DNA of 48,103 bases. Source: a virus (Duplodnaviria; Caudoviricetes). The notes under the pieces were generated by a model. It was not told the DNA's origin, made no database searches, and worked only from the letters and a program-made list of their open reading frames with translations. The first letter of the stretch is position 1. Each line of letters begins with the position of its first letter. Shown one piece after another: positions 9,338 to 32,193 of the stretch. Both the position numbers and the translations under genes were made by a program. Where the stretch lies: the IMG/VR virus record IMGVR_UViG_3300043756_000069, positions 1 through 48,103 of that record. The stretch is one strand, 5' to 3'.

Positions 9338-12300
9338 TGGTAACAACCTCACACACTACATGGTTCACAGTATCCTCACCACCATAGTAACCAACGTCCC
9401 TGTTTATACTGAGAACTCTCAGTTGTGTTTCTCTTGGTAGTAACACTTCTGATTCCCTGCTCGTTGCTGTTCCAGTCTGATCAAGTGACAGAGAATTGAA
9501 ACCTTTCGGCACATGAATTTCCACTATCGTTCTGCCGAATTCTTCTGCTGTTTCCAGACGCAGTGAAGCAGATGAATATGCATAGTCACTAAACACTGAC
9601 CCTACTTGAAGGTCTTTCAGTGCATCTACACCACGTCCCTTCACACCACGGAAAAGTGTAAGGTCAGTGTCAGCAGCAGACTCCATAATTGCATTGTCAA
9701 TTGCTGGTATCACTTCCTTTAGTGACAAGTAACTAGTCCCACCGTATGCTTGTCCTGGTGCGTAAATCTTGGTGGCAGGGAAGTCACCACCCTTTGCATC
9801 ACGCAGTGCAGTGTTGATTGTGGTGAAACTACTGCCACCGTAAGCTGTTACTGCACGCTTCTCTACCTCATCAGGTGCAGCATTGAAGTGTCCCATTGCA
9901 TAATCTTGTGCCTCAAACTTAGTGTCATACTGAGTCTGCCAATCCTCTGTCGGCAGTTCAACGTCACTTGCTGTAGGAGTTTGCCCAGCTTCTTCCTCAT
10001 ACTCATCCTCTTCATAAGGTGAAATGAAGTCTTCCTCAGTAGGTGCGTAAATCTCTTGTGCCTCTTCCTTACTGAGTGGTTCACCACTTGGTCCAATGAG
10101 TTTAGGTGCACTGTCAGCAACGTCCTTACCATACTGCCATTCCATTTCTGACTTAGTAAGTGGCACACTGTCAGGACTGAGATACAACATTTCCTCTTCC
10201 ACTGCTGGTGGTGGTGAAAGTGGTGCTGCTTGACTAACGTCAACCCACTCTTCACCCTTCTTGTATGCAGGTGCATACTCTTCCAGAAGTGCACCAGTGG
10301 AATCGTACTTACTCATCTCTTTCATCATACCAGTGAACTTATCTTTGGCATACCATGAACTTCCGTTCGAACCGTAAGTGTTAGCAAATGCCTCAGCGAA
10401 ACCTTCCTCTGGATTAGTCAGTGCATAGTCACTGATGTGTGCCAAGTCCTTGAAGGTCATACCCTGACTGTACATTTCATCCAGTATCTCATCAGCACCA
10501 AAACCGTGCACGTTTGCATACTGGTGACCAAGTTCGTGCATCATCATATCGTAACTGTTCTGCACTGGTCCGTCAGTGAGTCCCATATCTTCCACTGCAC
10601 GAATGGTGTCATTGATCATAATGCCATAATGACCATTTACACCAGTCTTGTAAGTAACTGCTTTGGCACCCTGCAACTCACCGTCAAGTATTTCCTTCTG
10701 CATCTTCGCTGCTGGTCCAAAGCCACCTGTCAGCACAGGATCACTGGTAAAGGTAATCTCAGTAAGTGCACCGCGAGTTGTGTCAACATCACCTTCAATT
10801 ACTTCTGGCATGTGAGTTTCAATCTCACTGAGTGCACTACCTATGTCACCCATCTGACTAGTGTCCATCGTAGACAACTCACCAAAGTTACCTTTGATCT
10901 TCACTAAGCCACTCTGTTTACCAATGCCACCGCTAGGAAACTTGTCTATCAACGCTTGTTGTAACTGCTTAGTTTCCTTCGCTGTCAGTTTGTCAGAGTC
11001 CTTCACGTCCGACCATGACGCTGCTTCTTCATAAGTAACTGCTTTACCCTCTGACACTTGTTGGTAAGCTTCTTCCGCTTCCTGTTGTGTAGCTGGCATT
11101 TCATCACCATACACTGCAATGAGTGTGCCACGACAACGTGACCAACCGTCACAGTCAGTGTAACCGCCAGCAGGATAGTCAACTTCTGCATCGTCAATCG
11201 TTTCATATGCAGTGCCATCTATCGCTGCACATGGATCACAAGTTTCACTGTCAAGTAACTCACTGGCATACACAGTGAAAGCAGGTTCACCAGCCTGTGC
11301 CTTGATTGGTTTACCCTTACTTGACTTCACTGGTTGCGGTTGCACTCTCGCTTGTGCAACTGCCATTGTCGCTTTGCGTCCATCGTTCATTGCAGAAGTA
11401 AGTGCACCACCGAGTTGATCCTGTAAGTAACCAGTAGTGAGATTGATAAGGTCTTCCTTCACCTTGTCAGCGATAGTCTTACCATCGAGTGAACCACCAG
11501 CGTAAACGAATGCACTTGACTTGGCAGAGTTAGTAAGTGTGTCAGCGAGGAACTTGTCAACTACCTTTGCACGTTCACGCTGATCCTCTGACAGTTGATT
11601 CAAGTCAGGCAACTGTAAAGTTATTCCCTGACGTGATGCTTCCTGTTGTGCATCATGTGCACCCATTGTCGCCATCGTTGACATGTGAGTGAAGATGATA
11701 TCCTCAAGCAATGGCGTAGCTTGAATTTCACCTATCTTCGCTAGTGAATTACCTGCTTCCGCCAACTGGTCATGTAACTCATCCATCTGTTGCAACTGTG
11801 GCTTACGCACTGCACTCACCAGTAAGTCACGCTGCTGTTTCCAGTTAGCGTCAGCACTTCCCCAATCGACTGCTGCTTTCAGTTCATGTGCAAACAATTC
11901 TCTACGGAGCGGACGGTTAGGTAAGGTCACAGGGGAAAGTGACTTACCAGTAACCGTCCGCTCACTGCTTCCACGTGCACCATAGACCGGCACGTCAGAC
12001 ATTGGTCCTTGACCAGCAGGTGAATTAGATGGTGAAGGAGTAGTAACACCACCTGTTTGCTCACCGGACATGGGCGGCCAAGGTTCTGACAGATTCGGTT
12101 GTGGCACAACTGGTTGTGGAAGTCCTGGTTTACGCATTGGCAAACCGTAACGTTCACGAATTGAATTCTCCAATTCATCATCCATGACAATTGCACCACG
12201 CTCTAACAGCATGGCAAATTCACGACCACTAAATGCACTGTCAGGATTGCGAGAGTAAACTAACTGTGGTGTAGCGTCAGCTTCTTCATCAACGTTCCAA

Positions 12301-13385
12301 CCCCACCAGTTTTCAATCACACTCGCAGTAAAAATCTGACATATCCAATTAGCTAACTCATCCAGTGCATCAGCAAAGAAGTCAATGAATTCAGTACCGA
12401 GTGCACGGCTACCTGTTTGTGTTTGACCTAACTGCATGAACATTGCTAACCATGACCGTGCCATTTCTTCATTGTCAAGTCTGATACTTGCAATTGTGTC
12501 AGGCAATGTTCCTGTTGTCCCTACCAGGGATACTTTCGTACCGTTAGGAACTGCACCACCACTTGTGTCACCTGCTCGCATCTTACGCATCAACATGTCA
12601 AGTCTCAGCATTGCACCACCTGACATACCAGGTGGCGCTTCTGCAATCGGTATACCTATACCGTTACGTTCCTGCTTCTGTGCATCAACCCTGAGTAACC
12701 TATCTTTGCGTAACCAGTTACGGTAACAAGCACGTAGTAAGGATCGACCAGTCCAGTTTGCACCTTCCATCATGTATGGATACCAGGTGACTCTGTTCAC
12801 TGGAATCATTTGTGGTGAGAACAGTTGCTTGAAACCGAGCAAGTCACCTTTTGCATCGATGTTTATTTCAGTGATTGTCTCCGGCGGACGTGGTGCCAGC
12901 TTAGTCAAGTGCCAGTTACCATCATCACCTATCTCACCAACCTGTTCAAACGCATAGTGTCCCATGATGATTGACACAAGTGCATCTGACAGGTGCTTAC
13001 CAAAGTCAAATCTGTTGCGGTACTTCTGACGTGGCAGTGGTTCATGTTCCTTGATGTTCAGTGACAAGTCTTTTGCGAGGTTAGTTACTTGATCCATGTC
13101 ACAGTCATTAGGATCGAGTAACCAGTGATACCGGCGGACTGGCACAGTTGTGGCTAGGAACAAACCTTGCACTTGTGCATCGTGCCGCATGTCACTGTAA
13201 GTTTGAATGGATCGCGGCCACTGTAACTCTGGCGAACGTTCTAGTGAGTCACTAACATAACTCATCCAACCTGGAACATTGACAGACCACAGGTTAGTGC
13301 TACCGATTTCATCGGTCGGTGGACTTGTCGGTAACGATTGGTTACCGCCAAATATGTTAGTGATATCTAGTGGTCCGATTGACAT
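9330..13385 (-). CDS. Portal (DUF935/Mu gp29-like) fused to MuF-like, HEXXH metallopeptidase and VIP2-like ADP-ribosyltransferase domains
   Basis: Portal motifs 'ERNGIGIP', 'GSRALG'; MuF-like 'D.ETC.PC..IDG...CRGTL'; 'HELGH...YALTNPEEGFAEAF'; ART 'INTALR...LFRGV...YSSAS...ESEVLLPR'. Confidence 0.85.
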   Translation of the reverse strand: MSIGPLDITNIFGGNQSLPTSPPTDEIGSTNLWSVNVPGWMSYVSDSLERSPELQWPRSIQTYSDMRHDAQVQGLFLATTVPVRRYHWLLDPNDCDMDQVTNLAKDLSLNIKEHEPLPRQKYRNRFDFGKHLSDALVSIIMGHYAFEQVGEIGDDGNWHLTKLAPRPPETITEINIDAKGDLLGFKQLFSPQMIPVNRVTWYPYMMEGANWTGRSLLRACYRNWLRKDRLLRVDAQKQERNGIGIPIAEAPPGMSGGAMLRLDMLMRKMRAGDTSGGAVPNGTKVSLVGTTGTLPDTIASIRLDNEEMARSWLAMFMQLGQTQTGSRALGTEFIDFFADALDELANWICQIFTASVIENWWGWNVDEEADATPQLVYSRNPDSAFSGREFAMLLERGAIVMDDELENSIRERYGLPMRKPGLPQPVVPQPNLSEPWPPMSGEQTGGVTTPSPSNSPAGQGPMSDVPVYGARGSSERTVTGKSLSPVTLPNRPLRRELFAHELKAAVDWGSADANWKQQRDLLVSAVRKPQLQQMDELHDQLAEAGNSLAKIGEIQATPLLEDIIFTHMSTMATMGAHDAQQEASRQGITLQLPDLNQLSEDQRERAKVVDKFLADTLTNSAKSSAFVYAGGSLDGKTIADKVKEDLINLTTGYLQDQLGGALTSAMNDGRKATMAVAQARVQPQPVKSSKGKPIKAQAGEPAFTVYASELLDSETCDPCAAIDGTAYETIDDAEVDYPAGGYTDCDGWSRCRGTLIAVYGDEMPATQQEAEEAYQQVSEGKAVTYEEAASWSDVKDSDKLTAKETKQLQQALIDKFPSGGIGKQSGLVKIKGNFGELSTMDTSQMGDIGSALSEIETHMPEVIEGDVDTTRGALTEITFTSDPVLTGGFGPAAKMQKEILDGELQGAKAVTYKTGVNGHYGIMINDTIRAVEDMGLTDGPVQNSYDMMMHELGHQYANVHGFGADEILDEMYSQGMTFKDLAHISDYALTNPEEGFAEAFANTYGSNGSSWYAKDKFTGMMKEMSKYDSTGALLEEYAPAYKKGEEWVDVSQAAPLSPPPAVEEEMLYLSPDSVPLTKSEMEWQYGKDVADSAPKLIGPSGEPLSKEEAQEIYAPTEEDFISPYEEDEYEEEAGQTPTASDVELPTEDWQTQYDTKFEAQDYAMGHFNAAPDEVEKRAVTAYGGSSFTTINTALRDAKGGDFPATKIYAPGQAYGGTSYLSLKEVIPAIDNAIMESAADTDLTLFRGVKGRGVDALKDLQVGSVFSDYAYSSASLRLETAEEFGRTIVEIHVPKGFNSLSLDQTGTATSRESEVLLPRETQLRVLSINRDVGYYGGEDTVNHVVCEVVTNG

Positions 13386-17856: not shown

Positions 17857-17895
17857 AGGTTACAGCCCGTGTCAAATGTCCCTGATTTGCAGGGG
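17857..17895 (-). promoter_or_regulatory. Putative virion-operon promoter (leaderless)
   Basis: CCCCTGCAAAT...TTTGACA-N7-TAACCT; the -10 ends 7 nt before ATG 17849. Confidence 0.5.
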
Positions 17896-18653
17896 AAAAT
17901 GAGTTACTGTCCGTATCATGTGACAGTATGGGGATACAGTTACTTTTTCTGAAAAAATTTGTGTGTGTTACTACCGCAGTTCGAGCGAAAAAATTACTTT
18001 TTTCCTCGCGAGAACTCGGTAAAAGTGTAACTTTACTTTACTGTTTACAGTCAAAGTAAACAGTAAGTGCACCCGCCCAGGTGACGGATGAGTAACTGTT
18101 ACACACAGTACAGGGTACCTACACTGACCAGTCACCAAGTGTCACTGTCAGTGTCATCAGTGTTCACTCAATAGTACGTAGATAGTAAGTAGAATAGTAA
18201 GTACAGTATATCTATCTTTCTCCTGCAAGTGACAGTGAACTTTGAATAATCAGTTAGTCAGTAGGGTCTAAGGGAAAGGGAGACACCTGTCTATACTGTT
18301 ACACTTACTGTTACTGTTACTTACTGTAACTGTAACTGGAGAAAAGAATACACATACTTACTGACTATACTTACTATTATGTGTAATATAACAGTAAGTG
18401 AGCGGAGCGAAGTGTAACTGCTGAATCGAACACTACATACCTGTGCGATCAGAATAGTAAGTAAATAGTAAGTAGTTATGTGTATATCTCTGTCTGTCTG
18501 CCCGCCCCTTTGCGCCTACTTATTTACTTACTATTCAAAGTGCACTGTCATTTGCAGGGGAAAGGCCGAGTACACCGAACGTACTATTCGACTTACTATC
18601 TACGTACTATCTTCCCACGACGCCGCGTAGTAGATCGAGTGACTGTCAGTATT

Positions 18654-18692
18654 CCCCTGCAAATCGCGGCTATTTGACACGTCCTATAGGGT
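18654..18692 (+). promoter_or_regulatory. Putative promoter, same motif family
   Basis: CCCCTGCAAATC...TTTGACA-N7-TAGGGT upstream of ORF 18735. Confidence 0.45.
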
Positions 18693-19814: not shown

Positions 19815-19822
19815 ATCAAACA

Positions 19823-19963
19823 ATCTACTACACAAGCGTAGTACATACTACACAGGTTAGTTGAATGTTATTAGCAACCACTAACATAACCAACGTTCTG
19901 CGTAGTACGACAACCTATAGTTGTCCTGTCGAACGCTTTAGCTACTACGCTTGTGTAGTAGAT
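19823..19963. repeat. Perfect 21-bp inverted repeat
   Basis: ATCTACTACACAAGCGTAGTA (19823-19843) and its exact reverse complement (19943-19963). Confidence 0.9.
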
Positions 19964-20295
19964 CATCAGGAACTAGATACACCAGATTCCGGTGTATCTT
20001 TTGAAAACCTATACTTGACGATCTACTACGATGCGTAACTGTTCGCATCGTGAACATAATAGTTTGGTAAGGACATGTAACACTACGCAGCGTAGTGGTG
20101 TACTTAGTGCGAAGCACGAAGTGCTTCGCAGGATGCAGCACAGCACGAAAGCGAAGCTTTCCCTCATATCCTGGAAAGCGGTAGACCAGACAACGGAGTT
20201 GTCAGGTGTGACCAACGGAGTGAAGGTCAGTCACGGTGTGAGTAACAACCACCAGGTGACGGAACAGCAGTAACCAAGCTGACTGACCAACACAT

Positions 20296-20880
20296 TAGGA
20301 ACAGCCACCGAATCACACCACACTCTGTACCGTCAACTGAGAATCACTCAGTAGCAGATGCCACACCACGCGAGACTTCGGTAGGCACTAGGTGGACCAG
20401 ATACACCACGCACCTGCACACAAACGGTACGGTCTGGATTGGGAGCACCAGTCACCCAGACGTGGAATGTCGAATCAGGTGAAGTGCCAAGCGAGGTATC
20501 TGATAGCAACCTTGACGTTTACCATTGGTTCCGGTTGCTAGGGCAACATCGTTGATCCGCCACACAGTGAAATAAAACTACAGTGCGCGGGGAGTGAGTA
20601 GAGTCGCTTGGTACAGACACTTAGTGTCTAACCAATAGTTACAGTTTTCTGTCCCGTGATCTTCACTGGTTCGTTGTTCAGTGCGACACACGTTTGCGGG
20701 ACGGTGGTAACGAATACAAATTACTCCTCCTTGTCACTGTTACATGACAATGCTTGGATTCACACTGATGGCTGTCCTACTTTCGATGGTAGGCGTGAGA
20801 ACGAATGAGTCAGTGCCAAGTATGGGTTATCACGCGGTTCAAGTCCGTGGTAACGGTGTGGCGTTCATTCGCCCTATAGC
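20296..20880 (+). ncRNA. Large (~600 nt) structured non-coding RNA candidate
   Basis: No credible ORF; more than 10 helices, including long-range 20296-20307/20769-20779, 20484-20494/20604-20614, 20649-20659/20694-20704 and 20802-20808/20865-20871; T-arm-like CGCGG-TTCAAGT-CCGTG. Confidence 0.6.
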
Positions 20881-20909
20881 AGTACCACTCACACTAAGGA
20901 GTACACACT

Positions 20910-21215
20910 ATGGATGCTTCACGTAGAAGCAATGGTCCTGACCGTGGTAACAGTTACTCACGTCGCGCTCGCAAGCATCGCCTACTCACTGAGTTTGGCG
21001 ATGGTGAGACTTGCGAGTGCATTTACTGTGGCGCTGAGTTGAACTTCGACACGGTTACATCAGACCGCGTTATACCTGGTTCGAACGGTGGCACTTACCA
21101 CCGTGACAACCTGGTGCCAGCTTGCCAGTTCTGCAACCTGTCACGTGGTGACACACCAATCCTTGAATTCATGTTGAAGGTTGGTCCTGTCAAGCTGGCC
21201 GCTTCAATCGGCTAG
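20910..21215 (+). CDS. HNH endonuclease-fold protein (first His replaced by Arg)
   Basis: CxxC ... 'SDRVIPGSNGG...DNLVPACQFCN..RG'; AAGGAG RBS. Confidence 0.85.
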   Translation: MDASRRSNGPDRGNSYSRRARKHRLLTEFGDGETCECIYCGAELNFDTVTSDRVIPGSNGGTYHRDNLVPACQFCNLSRGDTPILEFMLKVGPVKLAASIG

Positions 21216-21296
21216 CACACACCAGTGCACTGATGAGTCAAATCGTCAGTGTGCTTTCCCCATAAAGGGGTAACTCACACTCAAGGAGTAATTGAA
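21216..21296 (+). repeat. Intergenic hairpin-RBS element copy 1
   Basis: Stem AGTGCACTGATGA / loop GTCAAA / TCGTCAGTGTGCT; CCCC-ATAAA-GGGG; TAACTCACACTCAAGGAGTAA. Confidence 0.9.
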
Positions 21297-21797
21297 ATGA
21301 AACTCACCATTCATGGTCCGAACCTGAACGATCAGTCAAAGGGTACGTTCCACGTGCACACTGCTGAGTGCCGTGACAATAAGAAAGAAGTCACGCACAA
21401 CGGTAGTGAGTTGCCGATCACTCACGAATTCAAGTCAGTGATTGACGTTGTGGAATACATTTACGGTGATCACATGGCCGAGCATCCGGCTGGTGACAAG
21501 TGGTCCACTCCTGATGTTTACGTCAGTGACTTCCACTTCGCACCGTGCACCAATGACCTTCCTTATGTCACTGATGAGGAAATGGTCATTGAGCAAAAGG
21601 TCACTGAGGATGACTTGACTGACTGTGATGGTTGTAACGGTTCTGGTATCTACTATGGCCGTGGCTACGTGGAGAATGGAGTGTTCAAGGGTTACACGAA
21701 CACTTGCTTCCGTTGTCAGGGTAAGGGTAAGCAGAATGCTGCTGACCGGAAGCGTAACAGCAACTATGACAAGTACCACCGTAGGGTAAGCATCTGA
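21297..21797 (+). CDS. Hypothetical protein with DnaJ-type CxxCxGxG zinc finger
   Basis: CDGCNGSG...CFRCQGKG; start reassigned to the ATG after the RBS. Confidence 0.75.
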   Translation: MKLTIHGPNLNDQSKGTFHVHTAECRDNKKEVTHNGSELPITHEFKSVIDVVEYIYGDHMAEHPAGDKWSTPDVYVSDFHFAPCTNDLPYVTDEEMVIEQKVTEDDLTDCDGCNGSGIYYGRGYVENGVFKGYTNTCFRCQGKGKQNAADRKRNSNYDKYHRRVSI

Positions 21798-21878
21798 CAC
21801 ACAGTGTGACCAGGTTTCAACCACCTGGTCATACTCTTCCCACAAGGGATAACTCACACTCACAAGGAGTAATCACAA
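21798..21878 (+). repeat. Hairpin-RBS element copy 2
   Basis: AGTGTGACCAGGT/TTCAACC/ACCTGGTCATACT; TCCC-ACAA-GGGA; conserved tail. Confidence 0.9.
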
Positions 21879-22169
21879 ATGACCAAATACACAGTTATGT
21901 TCAACGGTCATACGTTCACACGTAACAGCGAGCATGTCTACACACATGCAGCGTTCAATCCTAACCGTAGAGGTAACCGAGCATGGGTTAGCTTTCACGG
22001 TTCGGAGAAAGCTGCTAGGCGTGCTGCTGGTTCATTCGGGTTAGTTCATGCTGTCATCAGTGATAACCCAACTGCTAAGTGCATCGTGTGCAACGGTGAA
22101 CGGTATTACACTGAACAGCACGCGGACGGTTCACATCATCGCGTTGCATGTTGGAAGTGCAATCGGTAA
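21879..22169 (+). CDS. Hypothetical protein, C-terminal zinc ribbon
   Basis: RBS tail; CIVC...CWKC. Confidence 0.75.
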   Translation: MTKYTVMFNGHTFTRNSEHVYTHAAFNPNRRGNRAWVSFHGSEKAARRAAGSFGLVHAVISDNPTAKCIVCNGERYYTEQHADGSHHRVACWKCNR

Positions 22170-22247
22170 CACAGTGTGTGGTCGCTTCATCGCGGCCACA
22201 TACTCTCCCCAATTGGGGTAACTCACACTCACACAAGGAGTAAACAA
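22170..22247 (+). repeat. Hairpin-RBS element copy 3
   Basis: AGTGTGTGGTCGC/TTCATC/GCGGCCACATACT; CCCC-AATT-GGGG; tail. Confidence 0.9.
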
Positions 22248-22484
22248 ATGCAGGAATTGTCCTTCACTCAGCATGACCTTCATGGTCACAAGTATGTCAA
22301 CCCTACTGCTGTTGTCAGCATGAAGAACAAGAAGGAACTGCACTTGTGCGATAACGTCACTGAACTGTTTGACGCAGTTGCAGGTGACAAGAAGTTCGTT
22401 GCACATGAAGTGATCGGTAACGCACCTGTTCAGGTACTCATCAGTCCTGACGCAGTGGCTACCGTTCAGATTTACAAGCGGTAA
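22248..22484 (+). CDS. Hypothetical protein
   Basis: ATG after the AAGGAGTAA tail. Confidence 0.7.
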   Translation: MQELSFTQHDLHGHKYVNPTAVVSMKNKKELHLCDNVTELFDAVAGDKKFVAHEVIGNAPVQVLISPDAVATVQIYKR

Positions 22485-22569
22485 CAACACAGTGCGGTAA
22501 CGAGTCAGATCGTTACCGTGCACTGTCGGCAATCCTGCCGACTGACTCACACTACAAGGAGTAACACTC
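22485..22569 (+). repeat. Hairpin-RBS element copy 4
   Basis: AGTGCGGTAACGA/GTCAGA/TCGTTACCGTGC; GTCGGCA-ATCC-TGCCGAC; tail. Confidence 0.9.
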
Positions 22570-23262
22570 ATGTTGAAGTCACAAGTCAAGATCGGTGGCA
22601 AGTACACTGCTAAGGTGTCAAACAACCTGGTCACGGTGCGGATCGAAAGTGAACACCGTTACGGTGGTTGGACTGCCACTAACCTTTCCACGATGCGGAA
22701 GGTGCACATCAAGAGTGCACAGAAGCTACGTGGTGAAGTCACTGACAAGCCTAAGACCGAGCGTCCGCGCAATGGTAATGGTGATCCTTTGGCGAGTGAA
22801 CGTCAGATCAATTTCATCAATGACTTGCTTGATCAGCGAGTTGCTAGTGATGAAATGGTGAATGCGTATCACGTTGCTGTGTTGGAAGAGAGGTTCACCA
22901 TTGGTAACGCTGACTGGATGATCAAGCAGTTGAAGCGTAACCCGATGAAGAGTGACCACAGTGCACCTGAGATTGATCAGGTGAAACTCACCACTGACCG
23001 TATCACTCAGATCGGTCGCGATGGTGGTGCAGAAATGGTCACCGAGTCACTTGACAGGGACATTGTGTCCATGTCAGTTGAGGCAATGGTTACCGATATC
23101 ACTGGTGCCGATCCTGCTGACATGTCAACGTTTGAACTGAACACTTACGCCATTGCTTACCTGGATGGCGTGATGAACGGTGCACTGAAAGCAGTTGAAA
23201 CGCTACAAAAGCAGTTCAACGCACCACGCGAGAAGGTCACTACTCGCAAGAAGCAGCGGTAA
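22570..23262 (+). CDS. Hypothetical protein (SH3-like N-terminus, '[10 protein letters not shown]' module)
   Basis: 230 aa; RBS tail. Confidence 0.75.
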
Positions 23263-23340
23263 CACAGTGTGTGGGAGAGTCAAATCTCCCACATACTCTC
23301 CACCATAAGGTGGTAACTCACACTAACAAGGAGTAACGCA
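23263..23340 (+). repeat. Hairpin-RBS element copy 5
   Basis: AGTGTGTGGGAGA/GTCAAA/TCTCCCACATACT; CCACC-ATAA-GGTGG; tail. Confidence 0.9.
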
Positions 23341-23661
23341 ATGTCTGATGACAAGCCTATGACTGAACTTGAAGTGTTCAATCTGGCAGAGGAACTGTCA
23401 GGTGAACAGATTGATGACATGTGGTCAATGAATATCACTAAGTTCTCTGACAAGTTGTCAATGGCACTGTGGACCATTAGTGGTCACGGTTTCGATGATG
23501 ACAGTATCCCTAGTCCTAGTGATGACGGTTCATATGTTCTCAGGATCAATCGGTTCGTAGTCCTGTGTGACACACAGGGTTTCGTCAACACTCGTCCATA
23601 TGACAAGGTGCAACATGCACGGTGGGCGATGGATGATATCCGTCGCGATATGAACGAGTAA
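23341..23661 (+). CDS. Hypothetical protein
   Basis: RBS tail; 106 aa. Confidence 0.75.
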   Translation: MSDDKPMTELEVFNLAEELSGEQIDDMWSMNITKFSDKLSMALWTISGHGFDDDSIPSPSDDGSYVLRINRFVVLCDTQGFVNTRPYDKVQHARWAMDDIRRDMNE

Positions 23662-23740
23662 CACACAGCAGTGCACTGTTTCACCACGGTGCACTGTTCT
23701 CCGCGTATGCGGTAACTAACACTCACAAGGAGTAATCACA
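23662..23740 (+). repeat. Hairpin-RBS element copy 6
   Basis: AGCAGTGCACTGT/TTCACC/ACGGTGCACTGTT; CCGC-GTAT-GCGG; tail. Confidence 0.9.
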
Positions 23741-24022
23741 ATGAAGGTATTCATGCTTTGGTACGGTGGTAACGGTAACTATGCTGCACCTGAACTGGAT
23801 GACGTTGAAGAGTTTGACAGTATCAAAGATGCTGTTAGGTCATTCGATTCACGTGCAGATAGTTGGAACACTTACTATCCACTGGTTGAACGTGACACGT
23901 TCGACAATGGTGGTCAGTTCGCTCACCTGTTCTTCACCGATCCGCGTGAATCAGGTGAAGGTTACCCTGACAGGGTAATCGAGTATGGTCCACGCGGTGG
24001 CATTCACGTGAACCGTATGTAA
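23741..24022 (+). CDS. Hypothetical protein
   Basis: RBS tail; C-terminal 'YPDR....GPRGG'. Confidence 0.75.
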   Translation: MKVFMLWYGGNGNYAAPELDDVEEFDSIKDAVRSFDSRADSWNTYYPLVERDTFDNGGQFAHLFFTDPRESGEGYPDRVIEYGPRGGIHVNRM

Positions 24023-24103
24023 CACACAGTGCACCAGTGACTCATCATCGCTGGTGCATTCTCCGCCACATGGCGGTACTCACACTCACAAGGAGTAACA
24101 GCA
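24023..24103 (+). repeat. Hairpin-RBS element copy 7
   Basis: AGTGCACCAGTGA/CTCATCA/TCGCTGGTGCATT; CCGCC-ACAT-GGCGG; tail. Confidence 0.9.
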
Positions 24104-24259
24104 ATGACCATTGAACAGATGTGGGACAAACTCATTGAACTAGGTGTCAGTGAGCAGTGCCTACGTATTGTCACTAGCATCAACGGTTACAACGCGCAGA
24201 CAATGCGTGACGTACTGTATGCACACATTGGTTACAACGATTTCGACCAGGTGAACTAA
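24104..24259 (+). CDS. Small hypothetical protein (51 aa; below the ORF-track cutoff)
   Basis: MTIEQMWDKLIELGVSE...; RBS tail; TAATG overlap with the next gene. Confidence 0.7.
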   Translation: MTIEQMWDKLIELGVSEQCLRIVTSINGYNAQTMRDVLYAHIGYNDFDQVN

Positions 24260-24453
24260 TGCACGATGAAATGACAGATAGTGAAACTGCTGTCCTTCAC
24301 AACCTGCTTGCCAAGTATTGCACTCAGTATGCGATGCCTGGTGAGTGGTCAATCAGTGAACGTCAAGCATTCACTGCACTAGCTGGTGACTTGCGTGAAT
24401 CCATTATGGATGAGCGCATTACACTGGAACCATTTCCCAACCTAGGTTGCTGA
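24259..24453 (+). CDS. Small hypothetical protein
   Basis: Translationally coupled at both ends. Confidence 0.65.
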   Translation: MHDEMTDSETAVLHNLLAKYCTQYAMPGEWSISERQAFTALAGDLRESIMDERITLEPFPNLGC

Positions 24454-24620
24454 TGCCACACACCATAGGTCACTACGATGCACGTTTGGCAATGCTGAAC
24501 GTGCGTATCAGAAGACTCACCGATGAGCGTAAGCGAATCACTGGTGAGTTGAACGCTGCTAAGCGTGAACGTCGCGCCATCCTCGCAAAGCAGCAGCGCA
24601 GTAAAGCAGCAAAGAAGTAA
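24453..24620 (+). CDS. Small basic coiled-coil protein (55 aa)
   Basis: TGATG overlap; MPHTIGHYDARL...KAAKK*; stop precedes copy 8. Confidence 0.65.
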   Translation: MPHTIGHYDARLAMLNVRIRRLTDERKRITGELNAAKRERRAILAKQQRSKAAKK

Positions 24621-24694
24621 CACAGTGTGATCGGGTTTCATCACCTGGTCACACTCTCCGCGTAAGCGGTAACTCACACTAACAAGGAGTAACA
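24621..24694 (+). repeat. Hairpin-RBS element copy 8
   Basis: AGTGTGATCGGGT/TTCATC/ACCTGGTCACACT; CCGC-GTAA-GCGG; tail. Confidence 0.9.
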
Positions 24695-25006
24695 ATGTCA
24701 GACACACTCAAGATCATCACTAACAACGTTCCACGTGACATTCTGTGGGACTTGCCAGAGAGTGACCGTAAAGAGTTTGACTACATCAAGTGGTCAGATG
24801 TTGACAACGGTATCGAGTCAGTGGCTTTTGTGAACTACAAAGGTCAGTTGTATGACTTGAATGACACGGAAGGTGTCTTCCCTGCTGACCGTAGCTGGTT
24901 CTATGTCAGTGACTCATTCTTCTCTGGTGTACTGTTCAGGTATCCAGCGGATGAATTCGGCACGTATGACACTGAACAGATCATTTGCGGAAGGTACTAC
25001 GCATAA
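24695..25006 (+). CDS. Hypothetical protein
   Basis: RBS tail; 103 aa. Confidence 0.75.
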   Translation: MSDTLKIITNNVPRDILWDLPESDRKEFDYIKWSDVDNGIESVAFVNYKGQLYDLNDTEGVFPADRSWFYVSDSFFSGVLFRYPADEFGTYDTEQIICGRYYA

Positions 25007-25185
25007 TGCCATTCTCACAATCACACTCACTGATCAGCTTTGTCATTCGTGACAGTGATGATCACATCATTGAAACACGTGACAACATGTCACGCACGGA
25101 TGCTGTTGAATTCATGCGCTCATTCTTTCGTAGCATGGAAGAAGATGAGTACATAATTCAGGTGAACAAAAAGATCAAGTGGTAA
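25006..25185 (+). CDS. Small hypothetical protein
   Basis: TAATG coupling (MPFSQSH...). Confidence 0.6.
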   Translation: MPFSQSHSLISFVIRDSDDHIIETRDNMSRTDAVEFMRSFFRSMEEDEYIIQVNKKIKW

Positions 25186-25263
25186 CACAGTGTGGTGACG
25201 AGTCAAATCGTCACCATACTCTGCACCATACGGTGCTGATTCACACTCACAAGGAGTAACACT
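25186..25263 (+). repeat. Hairpin-RBS element copy 9
   Basis: AGTGTGGTGACGA/GTCAAA/TCGTCACCATACT; GCACC-ATAC-GGTGC; tail. Confidence 0.9.
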
Positions 25264-25527
25264 ATGCCACGTGCTGCTAAGCAGCAATACCGCATATACA
25301 TTCATGGTCACTCTTTCCGTCATGTGTTCGGTACACCTGACGCTAAGGAAGTGACTGCATGGATGGTGAAACTGTACAAAGGTCAGCAACCTGGTTTCCC
25401 TAGGGTTGGACCTTATGACTGGTCAGTTGAGAAACTTGATCAGTCTGATGGTAACTGGTATGCGATTGACGCACTGTCAAAACAAGCGTTGATCGCTGCT
25501 ATTCACAAAGGTGTCACTAATGCCTAG
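25264..25527 (+). CDS. Hypothetical protein
   Basis: RBS tail. Confidence 0.7.
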   Translation: MPRAAKQQYRIYIHGHSFRHVFGTPDAKEVTAWMVKLYKGQQPGFPRVGPYDWSVEKLDQSDGNWYAIDALSKQALIAAIHKGVTNA

Positions 25528-25867
25528 GCTACAACGTTCACTGCACCGTGGTTGGTCTGACCGTAAACCGTTCATCAGACGTGTCCGTTGGTATCAGAAT
25601 GAAAACATGAGTGCACTTGCACAAGTGAGAAGTTCTATGCCATACAGGTTGAATTTCCAAGATGAATTCATGGAGATAAACCGATTCTTCACTACACATG
25701 AAACGACACTACACTGGTTTGAACGATTCATTGCACTAAGTGATGAGCGTCCATTCAAGCCTGTACCTGGAACGTACCCACCACAACCAAGTGGTGAGAA
25801 TGTTAGTGACTCACCAGTGCGGCGGATCGAAGAAGAGATTGAAGCTGCACAAGCAGAAGGTAAGTAG
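25520..25867 (+). CDS. Hypothetical protein
   Basis: Overlaps the upstream gene end; stop precedes copy 10. Confidence 0.65.
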   Translation: MPRLQRSLHRGWSDRKPFIRRVRWYQNENMSALAQVRSSMPYRLNFQDEFMEINRFFTTHETTLHWFERFIALSDERPFKPVPGTYPPQPSGENVSDSPVRRIEEEIEAAQAEGK

Positions 25868-25946
25868 TAACAGCACAGCGATGTGTCACAACGTCGCTGT
25901 GTTCTTCCGTCACCCGACGGATAACTCACACTAACAAGGAGTAACT
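25868..25946 (+). repeat. Hairpin-RBS element copy 10
   Basis: AGCACAGCGATGT/GTCACA/ACGTCGCTGTGTT; TCCGTC-ACCC-GACGGA; tail. Confidence 0.9.
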
Positions 25947-26303
25947 ATGTCTCGTCCTAAGTCAATGACTAACGTGCAACTGGCAGAGTGGTTGGACCAA
26001 CTCGGTTCACACACTGTGTACGATGCAGTGATGTTGACTGACACACTACCTGCTGACATTGCAGCAATAGTGCCGACACAAACCACTGCACAAGTCAGAC
26101 GTGCAATGGAGAACCGTGGACTAGGTGGTGACATTACCACTAAGGATACGATTCTGTTCACTGGTTACATTGCGGCAATGGCTATTTCACGTGCACGTTG
26201 TGGTAGTGACGCATGTCAGGAAGCATACGGTCAGATAGCTGGTCGTGGTTCCATTCACCGTGCAGCGATTGCACTACTCAGAAGGACACCTGACAATGCA
26301 TGA
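25947..26303 (+). CDS. Hypothetical protein
   Basis: RBS tail. Confidence 0.7.
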   Translation: MSRPKSMTNVQLAEWLDQLGSHTVYDAVMLTDTLPADIAAIVPTQTTAQVRRAMENRGLGGDITTKDTILFTGYIAAMAISRARCGSDACQEAYGQIAGRGSIHRAAIALLRRTPDNA

Positions 26304-26502
26304 CGAAATGAACAAGCATGAAGCGATTGAACGTATGAAGACACTTCACGCACAGCTTACTGCTGCACGTGAAAGTGCACTCATCTGTTCAGCGTTACTA
26401 GCTGGTGTGGATCAACGTTCTACCTGGTTGCGCGATGACATAGCGCAGTCACTTGAAGTTCTCGATTCACAGGTGCGTGGAAACATTCACTCCATGCAGT
26501 GA
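26296..26502 (+). CDS. Small hypothetical protein
   Basis: AAGGA upstream; MHDEMNKHE... Confidence 0.6.
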   Translation: MHDEMNKHEAIERMKTLHAQLTAARESALICSALLAGVDQRSTWLRDDIAQSLEVLDSQVRGNIHSMQ

Positions 26503-26577
26503 CACAGTGCAGTGCAGAGTCAAATCTGCACTGTGCTTTATTACCCTCAGATCAAACACTCACAAGGAGTAACACTA
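26503..26577 (+). repeat. Hairpin-RBS element copy 11 (no second hairpin)
   Basis: AGTGCAGTGCAGA/GTCAAA/TCTGCACTGTGCT; CACTCACAAGGAGTAA. Confidence 0.9.
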
Positions 26578-27156
26578 ATGATAGGTTGCACCAACGTCTA
26601 TCACAACGAAGTTGACTGTCGCGTAGCAGGATTGTCATATGCACTGTGGTGCAGTGCATGTCGGATGACACTGACGGATATCTACGTTGAAAGCATCAAA
26701 GAGTCACATGCTCGCATTCAAGCGAGTATCGATGATGAAACTGTCATTGACTTACTGACCACTCCAATGTTCCCGTTGCAGTATGACGTGAAGGATCACA
26801 ACAATGAACGTGGTGACTATTACGAAGAATGTGACGTGTGTCATCGTTCAATGTTTGACGTTCAAACTGTTCACCTAGGTGACTCTCGTCCTTGGACATG
26901 GGACACCATTGGTGTATGTGGTGCGTGTCGTTTCACTGAGGCAATCAGACAAGCTGCTGAGAATGCACAGTATGAACGGTGGGCGCGTGAAGAACAAGAG
27001 TGGCTAGACAACGGTGGTCAGGAATTGATTGACAGTGAACCGTATGTGTGGCCGGATGAACGTGACACTTACCGTAGCAATCCAGACGGTACAGTTACAC
27101 TCATCACAGAAAGCGGTCAGGAACACACTTACGATCCTGACCAGTTGGATCAGTAA
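26578..27156 (+). CDS. Hypothetical protein with CxxC motifs
   Basis: Start reassigned after the RBS tail; CSAC, CDVC, CGAC. Confidence 0.7.
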   Translation: MIGCTNVYHNEVDCRVAGLSYALWCSACRMTLTDIYVESIKESHARIQASIDDETVIDLLTTPMFPLQYDVKDHNNERGDYYEECDVCHRSMFDVQTVHLGDSRPWTWDTIGVCGACRFTEAIRQAAENAQYERWAREEQEWLDNGGQELIDSEPYVWPDERDTYRSNPDGTVTLITESGQEHTYDPDQLDQ

Positions 27157-27251
27157 CACCAAGTGCAGCAGCGAGTCACATCGTTGCTGTACTCTGCGCC
27201 AAGGGTAACCGCGCAGAAGAGTTACCCACACTCACAAGGAGTAGTGACACT
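27157..27251 (+). repeat. Hairpin-RBS element copy 12 (second hairpin replaced by overlapping helices)
   Basis: AGTGCAGCAGCGA/GTCACA/TCGTTGCTGTACT; CTGCGC..GGGTAAC.GCGCAG..GTTACCC; tail. Confidence 0.9.
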
Positions 27252-27776
27252 ATGTCACAGTTCAACACTAAAATCACTGAGGCAATTGAAGCGTTGGACG
27301 CTGAGATTGCTGACGTGGAGCAAGAGTTGGAACAGTTGAAAGCAACTCGTGCCAACCTTGAAACAGTGTTGGTTGAAGGTGACGATGAGACACCTAAGAA
27401 GTCACAACGTAGCAAGGTGTCAACCATCAAGGTCAGTGACAAGCCACAACGCAGTGGTCGTGCTGACAGTAAGCGTGGTGAGATTATCTCCATGCTTGAG
27501 GATGGTGTAAAGCCATCTATCATTGCTGAGCAGATGGACGTTACACCTAACTATGTGTACACCATCCGCAAAGCGGAAGCTATTGCACAGAGTGACACAC
27601 CACGCCGTGGTGGTCGCCGCGCATCGCGTAACAGTGATAGCGGTAACGGTGCACGTAAGGTCACCAAGCGTCAGCAGATTGCTGACATGCTTGCAGACAA
27701 AATGTCAGTGAAGGATATCGCTGACGAGTTGGGTATCTCACCTTCCTACGTTTACAACGTGAAGGGTAGTCTCTAG
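27252..27776 (+). CDS. Tandem helix-turn-helix DNA-binding protein with N-terminal coiled coil
   Basis: Two HTH repeats: 'GVKPSIIAEQMDVTPNYVYTIR' and 'KMSVKDIADELGISPSYVYNVK'. Confidence 0.8.
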   Translation: MSQFNTKITEAIEALDAEIADVEQELEQLKATRANLETVLVEGDDETPKKSQRSKVSTIKVSDKPQRSGRADSKRGEIISMLEDGVKPSIIAEQMDVTPNYVYTIRKAEAIAQSDTPRRGGRRASRNSDSGNGARKVTKRQQIADMLADKMSVKDIADELGISPSYVYNVKGSL

Positions 27777-27863
27777 TACACAGTCAGTGTGTGAGTCGAA
27801 TCGCACACTGACTCTATTCCTCTCATAGTTCACACTACAAACCACTCACAAGGAGTAACCCGT
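27777..27863 (+). repeat. Hairpin-RBS element copy 13
   Basis: AGTCAGTGTGTGA/GTCGAA/TCGCACACTGACT; CACTCACAAGGAGTAA. Confidence 0.9.
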
Positions 27864-28109
27864 ATGGCGGATGCACCTGCATCTTCTACACCACGTCCGC
27901 GCCGTTCACGCAGTCGTGCACCAGTGAAGACTGGTGTCACTGTTGTGTACCTTCAAGAGCGTGAAAGTAAAAACTTCATGCGCTTCGAAGAGGAAGTGGA
28001 AAACGGTAAAGACCCGATTGTCGGCAGTTACTTTTACATCGGTAAGCCACTGTTTGACAGGTTGGGTAAGCCTGATGCTATCGAAGTGCAGATAAAGCCA
28101 ACCGAGTAA
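27864..28109 (+). CDS. Hypothetical protein
   Basis: RBS tail. Confidence 0.7.
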   Translation: MADAPASSTPRPRRSRSRAPVKTGVTVVYLQERESKNFMRFEEEVENGKDPIVGSYFYIGKPLFDRLGKPDAIEVQIKPTE

Positions 28110-28186
28110 CACACAGTGCAGTGGCGTGTCACAACGTCACTGCACTTTCCCACTAAGGGATAACTCACACTAATAAGGAGTAACTA
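28110..28186 (+). repeat. Hairpin-RBS element copy 14
   Basis: AGTGCAGTGGCGT/GTCACA/ACGTCACTGCACT; TCCC-ACTAA-GGGA; tail. Confidence 0.9.
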
Positions 28187-28366
28187 ATGGGTGCCGATGT
28201 AACTGGAACACGATTCAACGCTCATGGTCGTAAGGTCGAAGATGTAAACATCTTTGTCAATCGCGTTGGTGACAAAGTGTTCCTTCAAATTGAAGGTAAA
28301 GGTCCAGCCAAGATGTATGACATACCTTTGACCGAGTGGCAGAAGATGGTAAACGGTACCAAGTAA
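28187..28366 (+). CDS. Small hypothetical protein (59 aa; not in the ORF track)
   Basis: MGADVTGTRFNAHGRKVEDV...; fills the interval between copies 14 and 15 exactly. Confidence 0.7.
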   Translation: MGADVTGTRFNAHGRKVEDVNIFVNRVGDKVFLQIEGKGPAKMYDIPLTEWQKMVNGTK

Positions 28367-28431
28367 CACAGTGTGGTGACGTGTCACAACGTCACTACAC
28401 TCTGTAGTAAACACACAACACAAGGAGTAAC
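28367..28431 (+). repeat. Hairpin-RBS element copy 15
   Basis: AGTGTGGTGACGT/GTCACA/ACGTCACTACACT; ACACAAGGAGTAA. Confidence 0.9.
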
Positions 28432-28911
28432 ATGGTTGAAGCTGTACCTGATCCACCTATTGATCCTATGAACTTGAAAGTTCAGTATGGAACAAGGTCA
28501 CTTGGACAGAAGGGTTACATTCTCCAAGACATGCAGTCACTAACTGTTGTCTTTCAGAGTGACTTCAAAGGTGACGTGATCAAGGAAGCACAACAGCGTA
28601 AGAGTTTCACACCTGCCAATGGCAGTGAGGAAACTTACGCACGTCAGTTAGCTGGTGCTGCTGGTGAACAACCAATGACTGAAATGATGACAGTGCGTAG
28701 TGCACTAGCTGGTGCTGTCGCAATGTCACTTGGTGATTACCTCAACTCCGAACAGGTTGAAGGTACTCCACTTGAACAGTATGAGTTTCAGGTGAGTCCC
28801 AATGGTGACACTGCTGTTGTGGTGATGGTTCGTCACACGTCAGATGACAGATGGATTTACACATTCACTGCAAACATCAGTGGTTCGGTCATCCGCACAC
28901 CTGCACAGTGA
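28432..28911 (+). CDS. Hypothetical protein
   Basis: RBS tail; 159 aa. Confidence 0.75.
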   Translation: MVEAVPDPPIDPMNLKVQYGTRSLGQKGYILQDMQSLTVVFQSDFKGDVIKEAQQRKSFTPANGSEETYARQLAGAAGEQPMTEMMTVRSALAGAVAMSLGDYLNSEQVEGTPLEQYEFQVSPNGDTAVVVMVRHTSDDRWIYTFTANISGSVIRTPAQ

Positions 28912-29012
28912 CACTTGGTCAGTGGTTCGTTGACAACCTAGCAATCATCGCTTTACTTGTGGCACTGCCATTTCTTATTGGATGGTTGCTAGACAAGTGG
29001 ATACACAAGTAA
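28908..29012 (+). CDS. Small single-TM peptide (34 aa)
   Basis: GTGA overlap; MTLGQWFVDNLAIIALLVALPFLIGWLLDKWIHK*; stop abuts copy 16. Confidence 0.55.
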   Translation: MTLGQWFVDNLAIIALLVALPFLIGWLLDKWIHK

Positions 29013-29090
29013 CATCAGCACAGCAGTGTGTCATTACGCTGCTGTGTTCTCCGCCAACCGGCGGTAACTCACACTACAAGGAGTAAGCAC
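29013..29090 (+). repeat. Hairpin-RBS element copy 16
   Basis: AGCACAGCAGTGT/GTCATT/ACGCTGCTGTGTT; CCGCC-AACC-GGCGG; tail. Confidence 0.9.
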
Positions 29091-29477
29091 ATGCCACGCA
29101 CACAGTCAAAGCTTGATCGTATGGCACAGATTGAGTCAGTGTTGAATGACGCTGACCTACTGACCGATTACCTTCAAGAGATTACTGACCACATCGAACA
29201 GCTAACTACTTTGCAGGAAGCTGTTCAGGAAGTCACTGAGTATGTCACTGAGGGAATGAACACTGTGTCAGAAGCACAGGGTTACCATGAAGATCGACAG
29301 TGGGAAGATCGTGACAGTCAACTGTCAGAACTTCAAGACAACCTGGAACGTATCGAAAGTGCACTCAACACTATCGGTGGTGTTGAACTGAGTGAACTTC
29401 GTTCAGTGGATGATGAAGTGAACACTATCCATGACAAGGTGGCAGAAGCACAGGAAGAGTTAGGTCACCTGATCTGA
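29091..29477 (+). CDS. Hypothetical coiled-coil protein
   Basis: Start reassigned after the RBS (MPRTQSK...). Confidence 0.7.
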   Translation: MPRTQSKLDRMAQIESVLNDADLLTDYLQEITDHIEQLTTLQEAVQEVTEYVTEGMNTVSEAQGYHEDRQWEDRDSQLSELQDNLERIESALNTIGGVELSELRSVDDEVNTIHDKVAEAQEELGHLI

Positions 29478-29548
29478 CACACAACACAGTGGCGAGTCAC
29501 ATCGCTGCTGTGTTCTTACCCTACTAACACACTCACACAAGGAGTAAG
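29478..29548 (+). repeat. Hairpin-RBS element copy 17
   Basis: AACACAGTGGCGA/GTCACA/TCGCTGCTGTGTT; CACTCACACAAGGAGTAA. Confidence 0.9.
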
Positions 29549-29803
29549 ATGGCAAAGGAACATTACGTCACTGAGGATCGCATCATGGTCTATGAAGGTG
29601 ACTTGGTGTATGACTACTACAGCATGGAACCTGTCATCATTGGTAGACCATGTGGTGGTGGTTGGTTTGACACACTGTCAATCACTGACGCCAACAAGCG
29701 TTCACGTGCAGGTATGTTGAACGGTCAGCGTATCTGTTCAATTGAATACGCTGCACTGAAAGACTTTGATGGTGCAAAGGATGCACTGAACAAGGTCACC
29801 TAA
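29549..29803 (+). CDS. Hypothetical protein
   Basis: RBS tail. Confidence 0.7.
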   Translation: MAKEHYVTEDRIMVYEGDLVYDYYSMEPVIIGRPCGGGWFDTLSITDANKRSRAGMLNGQRICSIEYAALKDFDGAKDALNKVT

Positions 29804-30018
29804 TGCCAAAGCAAGGTTACGATTACAGGTTACGTTGTCTTATTGACGGTGATGCACTTGAGGCTTACCAAGGAAAGTCAGGTGACTATTTCGGCTGGTA
29901 TGAAGGTGAAGTGGTGACACTTGAAGTGAAACACAAACATCACACACTGAACATCAAGCTGGACGAAAAAGGTAACGTGTCCCTGCAACGTCACATCAAT
30001 CCTCACGTAATAACGTAA
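29803..30018 (+). CDS. Hypothetical protein
   Basis: TAATG coupling. Confidence 0.65.
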   Translation: MPKQGYDYRLRCLIDGDALEAYQGKSGDYFGWYEGEVVTLEVKHKHHTLNIKLDEKGNVSLQRHINPHVIT

Positions 30019-30095
30019 CGTCAACCAGTGAGTGAGTCACTTCGCTCACTGGTTCTGTCAGCAATAAAGCTGACTACTCACAAGGAGTAACACTT
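30019..30095 (+). repeat. Hairpin-RBS element copy 18
   Basis: AACCAGTGAGTGA/GTCACT/TCGCTCACTGGTT; GTCAGC-AATAAA-GCTGAC; CTCACAAGGAGTAA. Confidence 0.9.
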
Positions 30096-30284
30096 ATGCC
30101 CGGTTACTATCGGTTGCGTGCAACTGATACAGGCTTTCAACTGTCATGGGTAGGTAACACCATGTCAATAAACATCGACGATGACGGAAGTCACGGTCCA
30201 ATCGCTGAGTTGTATCAGCGAGTGGATCAAGTGTTCCATGACAGTAGGAAGGAAGCAGAAAGGTCACACAGTGAAACCGAGTGA
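30096..30284 (+). CDS. Small hypothetical protein
   Basis: RBS tail. Confidence 0.65.
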   Translation: MPGYYRLRATDTGFQLSWVGNTMSINIDDDGSHGPIAELYQRVDQVFHDSRKEAERSHSETE

Positions 30285-30501
30285 AAAGAATCCAGCCATT
30301 GACGCAACACTGACAGCAATGTTTGGTGTTGACAGACAAGCGTCAATCAAAGAGAACGTGTGCATTGATCCGCCAATTGGTTGTGGTCAACCAATCAGTA
30401 ACTTTGCACTGTGGTCTGAGATTGAACAGTCAGAGTACAAGATCAGTGGTCTGTGTCAATCATGTCAGCGTGAAATATTCAAGGCTAACTATGACACGTA
30501 G
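30271..30501 (+). CDS. Small zinc-finger-like protein
   Basis: GTG after GAAAGG; 'C....GCG...EYKISGLCQSCQ'. Confidence 0.65.
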   Translation: MKPSEKNPAIDATLTAMFGVDRQASIKENVCIDPPIGCGQPISNFALWSEIEQSEYKISGLCQSCQREIFKANYDT

Positions 30502-30937
30502 ATTCCCTAGGTTCGAATTCCCTGACTTCAATGATCGCGATGCAGTCATCAGGTTTCAACTTGACAGACTGGATCATTGGGAAGCTGCACACAACAAACG
30601 TATTGAACTAACCATGAAGGACCGTATCACTGTTGACAGTAACGGTGTTGCGACAGTCACATACACAGTTGATGAGTATGAAGAACTGTACAAGTTGACT
30701 AACCTCGCAATGAAGATACGGTTACTGTGGGAAAGCTGTTACTCACGTGATCACTCACTTGAGTTGCTGTATACGTTCGAATACGTTGGCGTGGTGATTG
30801 ACTATCGCCTAGGTCTACGTAAGACACTACGGTCAAGTAACAGTCAGTCAATACCTAAGCTGGCACGTGCAGTGATACGTGACCAGGTTGACGGTATCAT
30901 TGCAGCACTGGATGATATCGAGACACTGACTCAGTAA
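30491..30937 (+). CDS. Hypothetical protein
   Basis: Start reassigned to MTRRFPRF; stop precedes copy 19. Confidence 0.65.
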   Translation: MTRRFPRFEFPDFNDRDAVIRFQLDRLDHWEAAHNKRIELTMKDRITVDSNGVATVTYTVDEYEELYKLTNLAMKIRLLWESCYSRDHSLELLYTFEYVGVVIDYRLGLRKTLRSSNSQSIPKLARAVIRDQVDGIIAALDDIETLTQ

Positions 30938-31014
30938 CACTTGCAGTGTGTGAGTCACATCGCACACTGCAACTCCTGCACAAGCAGGTACTCACACTCA
31001 ACACAAGGAGTAGC
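30938..31014 (+). repeat. Hairpin-RBS element copy 19
   Basis: TTGCAGTGTGTGA/GTCACA/TCGCACACTGCAA; CCTGC-ACAA-GCAGG; tail. Confidence 0.9.
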
Positions 31015-31356
31015 ATGGCAGACAGACATTTCCCTGTCTATGTAGTGAGGTTACCCAACAATGAAGGTTGCGGTCACCAACACAACACTGATGAACAAGC
31101 ATGGAACTGTGCGAGTAACATTGCACATCGCCGCAAGTCACTAGCATGGATACAAGTAGTGAAGATATCCATGCGTGCACACGGTCCGCGTGAAATAATC
31201 ATCGGTCAGGTTGCACAGTACACAACATGTACTGAGTGCAAAGGTCTAGTGCTGACACTGGATAACGGTACTGAACGTGGACACTATGAAACGTGTTCAC
31301 ACTTCACTGCTGGTGATCCTCGTCCTGGTCGTGGAAAGGTGACACTAAGTGACTGA
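31015..31356 (+). CDS. Hypothetical protein (Cys/His motifs)
   Basis: Start after the RBS; CGHQH, CTEC. Confidence 0.7.
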   Translation: MADRHFPVYVVRLPNNEGCGHQHNTDEQAWNCASNIAHRRKSLAWIQVVKISMRAHGPREIIIGQVAQYTTCTECKGLVLTLDNGTERGHYETCSHFTAGDPRPGRGKVTLSD

Positions 31357-32191: not shown

Positions 32192-32193
32192 CC

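Follow-up and report, generated by a model that had tools for sequence, protein, structure and literature searches.

A probable large structured RNA at the head of a gene array in a soil bacteriophage

Results

Genomic setting of the element and its relatives

The virus record IMGVR_UViG_3300043756_000069 (Caudoviricetes) was analysed over a stretch of 48,103 nt, referred to here as the window, which encodes sheath, tube, Mu-like portal, amidase, terminase, primase and PolA proteins; the completeness of the record is 78%. All of the runs listed as containing the stretch (6/6) are soil metagenomes, one of which, X1, may be its source; no RNA run is among them, an absence that says nothing about expression. 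Matches of the terminase and of an HNH protein are to actinobacterial phages at 39-54% identity, and therefore there is no cultured close relative. The element described here lies on the + strand at 20296-20880, between a hairpin-rich zone (19815-20290) and the gene for the HNH-fold protein (101 aa; 20910-21215, + strand). The HNH gene opens ~12 kb of short co-oriented genes, and the array is closed by a terminator-like site at 33338-33380 (+ strand; 15-pair stem and T run), which resembles the strong intrinsic type by consensus match only.

A metagenome scan using an alignment of the HNH protein returned 15 loci, two of which (L085 and L086) belong to this phage group. L085, with an HNH 75% identical to that of the window, has 638 nt upstream of its HNH gene, with the 5′ side cut off, and L086, encoding an HNH protein 57% identical to that of the window, holds only 154 nt. 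Near-complete copies of the element numbered two (window and L085), too few for R-scape. Contigs of metagenome runs X2, X5 and X6 are short and carry pieces of the element. An HNH search of viral contigs found no homologue, blastn against cultured phages gave short chance matches only, and a model (R1) applied to 73 sources matched strongly only the window and L085. Matches to a pattern of the conserved core were obtained in viral contigs (five) and genome contigs (four) and on reading were ascribed to chance; another pattern search returned 0 in both sets. A remote homologue was also considered in L002, a relative with a terminase 68% identical: a 16/17 match to the conserved block downstream of the core (31/500 shuffles, whole query) and two colinear 8-mers (125/3972 background windows; no model match) leave homology unproven.

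Conserved structure within the element

A sequence-only reading of the window had proposed a structured non-coding RNA at this position. All 13 of its helices, hairpins and pseudoknot arms were present in the sequence, and the eight pairs given with positions sit exactly there. The interval was said to lack a credible open reading frame (ORF), and indeed the longest stop-free stretch was 78 codons (six frames, 20201-20909) and was unmatched in L085, and an ORF list at 70 aa contained nothing between 20273 and 20910. A comparison of folding energy with shuffled controls, which the same reading had suggested, was only weakly favourable (z -1.39, with 8/100 shuffles folding as well; - strand, z -1.07), and 120-nt windows inside the element mostly gave z above -2. 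By folding energy the interval itself is unremarkable; better-than-chance structure rests on the relatives.

L085 1-638 folds at z -3.68 (0/20 shuffles). Its alignment to window 20437-20636 showed 79% identity over 204 columns, exceeding the 75% nucleotide identity of the adjacent HNH coding gene, and the first and last blocks of this core were 43/45 and 22/23 identical, respectively. RNAalifold applied to the window and L085 returned 54 pairs, seven of them with a two-sided change. When registers were set by the analyst, 70 pairs could be compared: 47 were the same, six had a one-sided change, 13 had a two-sided change and four were broken in L085. Three of the broken pairs belong to the GTCTGG/CCAGAC helix, a helix of the sequence-only reading that is not kept in L085 (at best 4/6 pairs). 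The one-sided changes that preserve pairing were all of the G-U type on the + strand (6/6), in agreement with the wobble bias noted earlier for this strand.

A blind covariation test was restricted to helices that the sequence-only reading had named without sight of L085. A position on L085 could be assigned to six of these 13 helices, yielding 46 pairs, 30 unchanged and 16 changed. Of the changed pairs 13 still pair, eight by two-sided change, compared with a null mean of 6.8 (47/200,000 simulations); when the helix closing the element was left out, 9/12 changed pairs were kept (669/200,000 simulations). Structure is thus conserved in a homologue, with the core helices of L085 maintained through compensatory changes. 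Further changes were observed elsewhere in the element. One X2 contig (depth 5.3; by eye) differs from the window in the 20649/20694 helix by three two-sided and two one-sided changes, the predicted 20354/20418 helix gains a G-C pair in place of an A-C mismatch through an A>G change at 20358 in contigs of three other studies (by eye), and in L086 the closing pair of a T-loop-like hairpin is changed from G-C to A-U, compensated. We consider it very probable that the element is a real structured RNA, and much less probable that it has any one particular function.

Extent and domain organization

The element is closed by a helix between 20296-20307 and 20769-20779 (both + strand; -17.3 kcal/mol). 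L085 contains a 12-bp counterpart that closes ~480 nt, with its 3′ arm at the same place as that of the window (L085 524-535, a positional match anchored by two downstream shared motifs) and two two-sided changes in the inner seven pairs. The length of the L085 helix was matched by 3/2000 shuffles and its energy by 26/1000. The ensemble probability of the closing helix was 0.985 when folding began at 20290, 0.008 when it began at 20050 and 0.003-0.006 in L085, and the arms have competing local partners. The window has two copies of the 6-mer at the centre of the 5′ arm (20261 and 20298), so it is uncertain which one matches the L085 arm.

Within the closing helix, a variable 5′ domain (20308-20430, + strand) forms multiple hairpins in the window and did not align significantly to L085 1-100 (280/1000 shuffles); the latter aligned better to 20063-20164 (20/1000 shuffles) than to 20280-20430. 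It is followed by a conserved core of ~200 nt (20437-20633, + strand), recognized by its identity to L085 and its covarying helices, which comprises a multibranch domain, invariant single-stranded blocks and a hairpin with a UGAAA loop that we take to be of the T-loop type. An optional hairpin domain (20640-20711, + strand) is missing from L085, where 11 nt rather than 86 nt separate the end of the core from the next block; one X2 contig has it, with compensatory changes (by eye). That next block (20720-20750, + strand) contains a pseudoknot arm and a small hairpin, which are 9/9 and 11/11 identical in L085; two diverged X2 contigs carry it and run on into the HNH gene. The pseudoknot predicted between 20590-20597 and 20721-20728 (+ strand; duplex -14.1 and -11.6 kcal/mol) retains 8/8 pairs in L085, and because all eight are unchanged it is a prediction without covariation. 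The X2, X5 and X6 contigs depart from the window sequence at 20318, 20440, 20659 and 20747. Between the window and L085 the conserved blocks keep their order and are separated by domains of different length, the spacing seen in large RNAs with optional peripheral domains. GOLLD RNA, according to PMC12286853, has one conserved and one variable region.

At the 3′ side, a predicted 6-bp hairpin with a T-loop-like loop (20776-20793, + strand) overlaps the 3′ arm of the closing helix by 4 nt, and similar hairpins occupy the same place in L085 (537-554) and L086 (3-21). Beyond it lies a 3′ domain (20802-20885, + strand) with a second T-loop-like hairpin (20833-20849), which is predicted to be a likely processing signal ahead of the HNH gene. 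The ~600 nt first proposed as a unit are shared with the relatives only in parts: L085 has the core, the closing helix and the short block downstream of the core, and the 3′ domain is common to L086 and is replaced by other hairpins in L085. In our reading, the predicted arrangement is a single RNA of ~490 nt, its 5′ boundary not defined, followed by a 3′ processing domain.

Comparison with known RNA families

The window was scanned against the 4227 families of Rfam 15, at gathering scores and at E up to 10. Nothing was found at gathering scores, and the best rows (17.2-18.3 bits) were unrelated families far below their cut-offs. ROOL gave no row in the all-family scans at E up to 10 and none in a single-model search in which the controls were also silent. 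GOLLD was likewise absent from the all-family scans and had 0 model matches at E 10. No model match was obtained for HEARO, group II introns, OLE, raiA, ARRPOF or other Rfam 15 families, and ARAGORN detected 0 transfer RNA (tRNA) or transfer-messenger RNA genes in the window, from a record 78% complete, and 0 in 5/5 loci.

Catalytic RNAs were compared individually. Bacterial type A (RF00010) and archaeal (RF00373) RNase P RNA models had 0 matches at E 10, and their controls were positive in 11 and 13 of 14 genomes, respectively. T-loop-type motifs in the element and tRNA-like elements downstream recall RNase P RNA, and short motifs within the element are similar to its conserved region I and to the end of its P2. 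The element differs from RNase P RNA in having no model match and no P4-type helix kept in both copies: none with a conserved-region-I strand occurs among the helices common to the window and L085, where L085 is cut at its 5′ side and a permuted partner is possible. For group I introns, the closing helix, the next hairpin and a shared 5-bp helix have a topology loosely like P3/P7/P8; there was no model row and no G-C guanosine-binding pair at the expected place (by eye), no ORF is interrupted, and 0/4 listed joints in the short contigs skip the whole element. A ribozyme like that of hepatitis delta virus, considered at 20756-20810, was rejected as P3/L3 lacks room (by eye).

The element is comparable to ROOL (RF03087) and GOLLD (RF02032) RNAs in being phage-borne, several hundred nucleotides long and non-coding, with a conserved core and variable regions. 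ROOL and GOLLD are abundant, discrete RNAs forming RNA-only cages, and often adjoin tRNA islands. The element also shares with them a multi-helix architecture, predicted pseudoknots and a function that is unknown (PMC12286853). It differs from both in matching neither covariance model and in heading an array of short early genes. Literature searches found no description of this element, with most subscription papers outside their coverage. A viral RNA screen (PMC10690425) reports candidates of at most 151 nt, and its supplements could include a piece of the element; the accessible part of a preprint (10.64898/2026.09.22.753630) does not mention HNH. Set against Rfam 15 only, sequence comparison suggests that this is likely a new family among the large ornate phage RNAs.

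Gene junctions of the array

Downstream of the element, 20 gene-junction repeats (21224-32406, + strand) consist of a 13-bp stem, a 6-7-nt loop, usually a second hairpin, and then a shared ribosome-binding leader. The stem was 13 bp at 19/20 junctions and 12 bp at 1/20, a length of 13 being reached by 2/500 random windows, and was 12-13 bp at 6/7 junctions in L086. With their fixed stem and T-loop-like loop, the repeats look like mimics of a tRNA acceptor plus T-arm, and one junction of L085 (1339-1404) contains a whole tRNA-like element (28.2 bits, cut-off 29) that was not called by ARAGORN.

In L002 three junctions match Hammerhead_II at 42.9, 35.9 and 31.1 bits (cut-off 37; one above); these lie at 404-2560 on the - strand, and hammerhead core motifs were seen at five junctions by eye. 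Type II hammerheads at the junctions of this relative recall the tandem hammerheads that flank genes in polycistronic prophage RNAs and are reported to be active (PMC3088659). The window differs in that its junctions are 13-bp tRNA-like hairpins and its large element matches no small ribozyme. RNase P, as described in PMC4919913 (section 4.3), cuts non-tRNA RNAs that present a T-loop and a helix of acceptor length. Because the junction hairpins are fixed and tRNA-like and L002 has hammerheads at these positions, cleavage of the early transcript at its gene boundaries is probable. On the simplest common explanation, L002 would rely on self-cleavage and the phage of the window on tRNA-processing enzymes. 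In L085 and L086 the genes behind HNH differ from those of the window in order and content, which suggests exchange at the junction repeats.

The adjacent HNH protein

The 101-aa protein matches Pfam HNH_5/HNH and has Asp-Arg where active HNH domains have Asp-His. Its best Protein Data Bank (PDB) sequence matches are Cas9 HNH domains, in alignment with which Arg occupies the position of the catalytic His, and D52 and R53 were invariant in 10/10 aligned proteins. In 3/3 loci (window, L085 and L086) the first gene to follow the element is HNH, and the later genes differ. The HNH relatives P0002-P0004 and P0007 are closer, at 74-83% identity. The same type of HNH occurs in 567 phage records, with cultured actinophage proteins sharing an Arg-rich N-terminus and the Asp-Arg pair; in 6/6 of the neighbourhoods viewed among these records the gene was directly behind another gene, with no match to the core. 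Because actinophage HNH proteins occur without the core and carry Arg at the position of the catalytic His, it is unlikely that this protein has an obligate RNA partner.

Other features of the window and relatives

The non-coding zone upstream of the element (19815-20290) folds at z -7.10 and includes a perfect 21-bp inverted repeat; part of it (20061-20128) is common to a diverged X2 contig, and L002 has a similar hairpin-rich zone at 3400-3990 (z -7.74). Between divergent gene blocks, the window has nested long inverted repeats (17861-18688; arms of 70, 40 and 37 nt; AT-rich), a possible origin, and L002 has a long low-complexity repeat tract (5880-6500). Near the contig end, a non-coding stretch (47770-48068) includes 11 nt (48048-48058) complementary to the closing helix in its 3′ arm, a match at chance level (E 10). 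Two proteins have additional domains: the 1351-aa portal (9330-13385, - strand) is fused to a C-terminal ADP-ribosyltransferase domain, and the family A DNA polymerase (44567-47008) has an N-terminal uracil-DNA glycosylase-like domain.

Discussion

The element has no ORF, its helices covary and its wobbles favour the + strand; it precedes 12 kb of co-oriented genes that end in one strong terminator-like site and have tRNA-like hairpins of fixed length at their junctions, positions at which L002 has hammerheads. The proposal of a large non-coding RNA or ribozyme-like leader therefore stands as a covarying, sense-strand structured element of no catalogued class placed before HNH and the array, and its analogy to HEARO is weak. 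Our preferred interpretation, offered tentatively, is a large free RNA that would be released from the early transcript and serve as a scaffold or decoy. The element would be transcribed as the head of this transcript and cut free by host RNase P or RNase Z at tRNA-like hairpins, with the T-loop-like hairpins at 20776-20793 and 20833-20849 providing release as at the junctions. It would then adopt a single fold of ~490 nt with pseudoknots and act in trans in the manner of ROOL or GOLLD. Several observations weigh against this interpretation. The element of the window folds at a z of only -1.39, and only two near-complete copies are known, one truncated at its 5′ side. The closing helix is improbable in the modelled ensembles of L085 and of the window with upstream sequence. 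No sigma-70-type promoter was found upstream of the element (0 versus 4.5 expected), and the window has 0 tRNA genes where ROOL and GOLLD are often near tRNA islands. In addition, the junction loops are mostly 6 nt rather than the 7 nt of a T-loop, and lack CCA.

Other roles can be envisaged for the element. It could act in cis as a leader, folding while the transcript is being made and modifying RNA polymerase or the ribosome for expression of the long array, as do the comparison elements HK022 put and the Bacillus EAR element. Its position before co-oriented genes that run to a single strong terminator, and closing-helix arms with competing local partners, as in a switch, are consistent with this; however, it is much larger than put or EAR, the array contains only three weak + strand terminator-like sites (10 in total versus 11.0 by chance) and an array of this kind occurs in L002 without a detectable core, and we consider a leader unlikely. 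Alternatively, a structured RNA of ~200 nt could be flanked by independent small modules swapped between phages, given that the core recurs in L085 without the 3′ domain, that the 3′ domain recurs in L086, that the X2, X5 and X6 contigs diverge at four points and that L085 1-100 matches sequence upstream of the element better than the 5′ domain. Such a mosaic is quite unlikely, as in both copies the variable parts are bridged by the closing helix, with its two-sided changes, and by the long-range pairing, and block order is identical. The placement of a structured RNA just ahead of an HNH-type ORF also recalls HEARO/OMEGA RNA with IscB or IsrB (RF02033), so that the RNA might partner the HNH protein in a ribonucleoprotein. 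The constant position of HNH behind the element in three loci while later genes vary, its linkage to the conserved block in two X2 contigs and its best PDB sequence matches, to Cas9 HNH domains, fit this idea, which is nevertheless decidedly improbable: there is no HEARO match, the 101-aa protein is HNH-only with no RuvC and with Arg for the catalytic His, no transposon features were seen, and the cultured actinophage genes viewed lack the core.

An RNA acting in trans as a phage ribozyme or ruler, recognizing and cutting the tRNA-like junction hairpins, would meet the need of those hairpins for an enzyme. L002 combines self-cleaving hammerheads with no detectable core, one of the T-loop-type motifs of the core equals the junction loop sequence, and a core block is similar to conserved region I of RNase P RNA. 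Such an RNA would be a counterpart of RNase P, its origin independent or very distant, and would be replaced by hammerheads in the sister lineage. We regard both the activity and this origin as very improbable, since RNase P models were silent with working controls, shared helices offer no conserved P4-like partner, host RNase P and RNase Z would suffice, and the presence/absence contrast depends on one genome. Pairing to the shared leader was at chance level too; as an antisense to gene leaders the element was rejected, its best 30-nt window ranking 76/4808, about chance for ~60 windows (7/20 leaders), and the conserved block is explained by the internal pairing. Finally, an untranscribed single-stranded DNA structure, such as an origin or recombination signal, would also tolerate G-T wobbles and would suit the long inverted repeats upstream, but the sense-strand bias, T-loop-type loops and pseudoknot-like pairings are features of RNA and in this clade true ribozymes occur within that transcription unit, making this the least credible proposal, extremely improbable in our view.

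Bacteria and phages have few large and highly structured RNAs, and most of those with solved functions are ribozymes or belong to the core machinery. A new family in soil phages would add a target for cryo-electron microscopy and biochemistry, and would do so in a testable setting, in which the same transcript carries twenty tRNA-like junctions of fixed length and a relative has hammerheads at the same positions.
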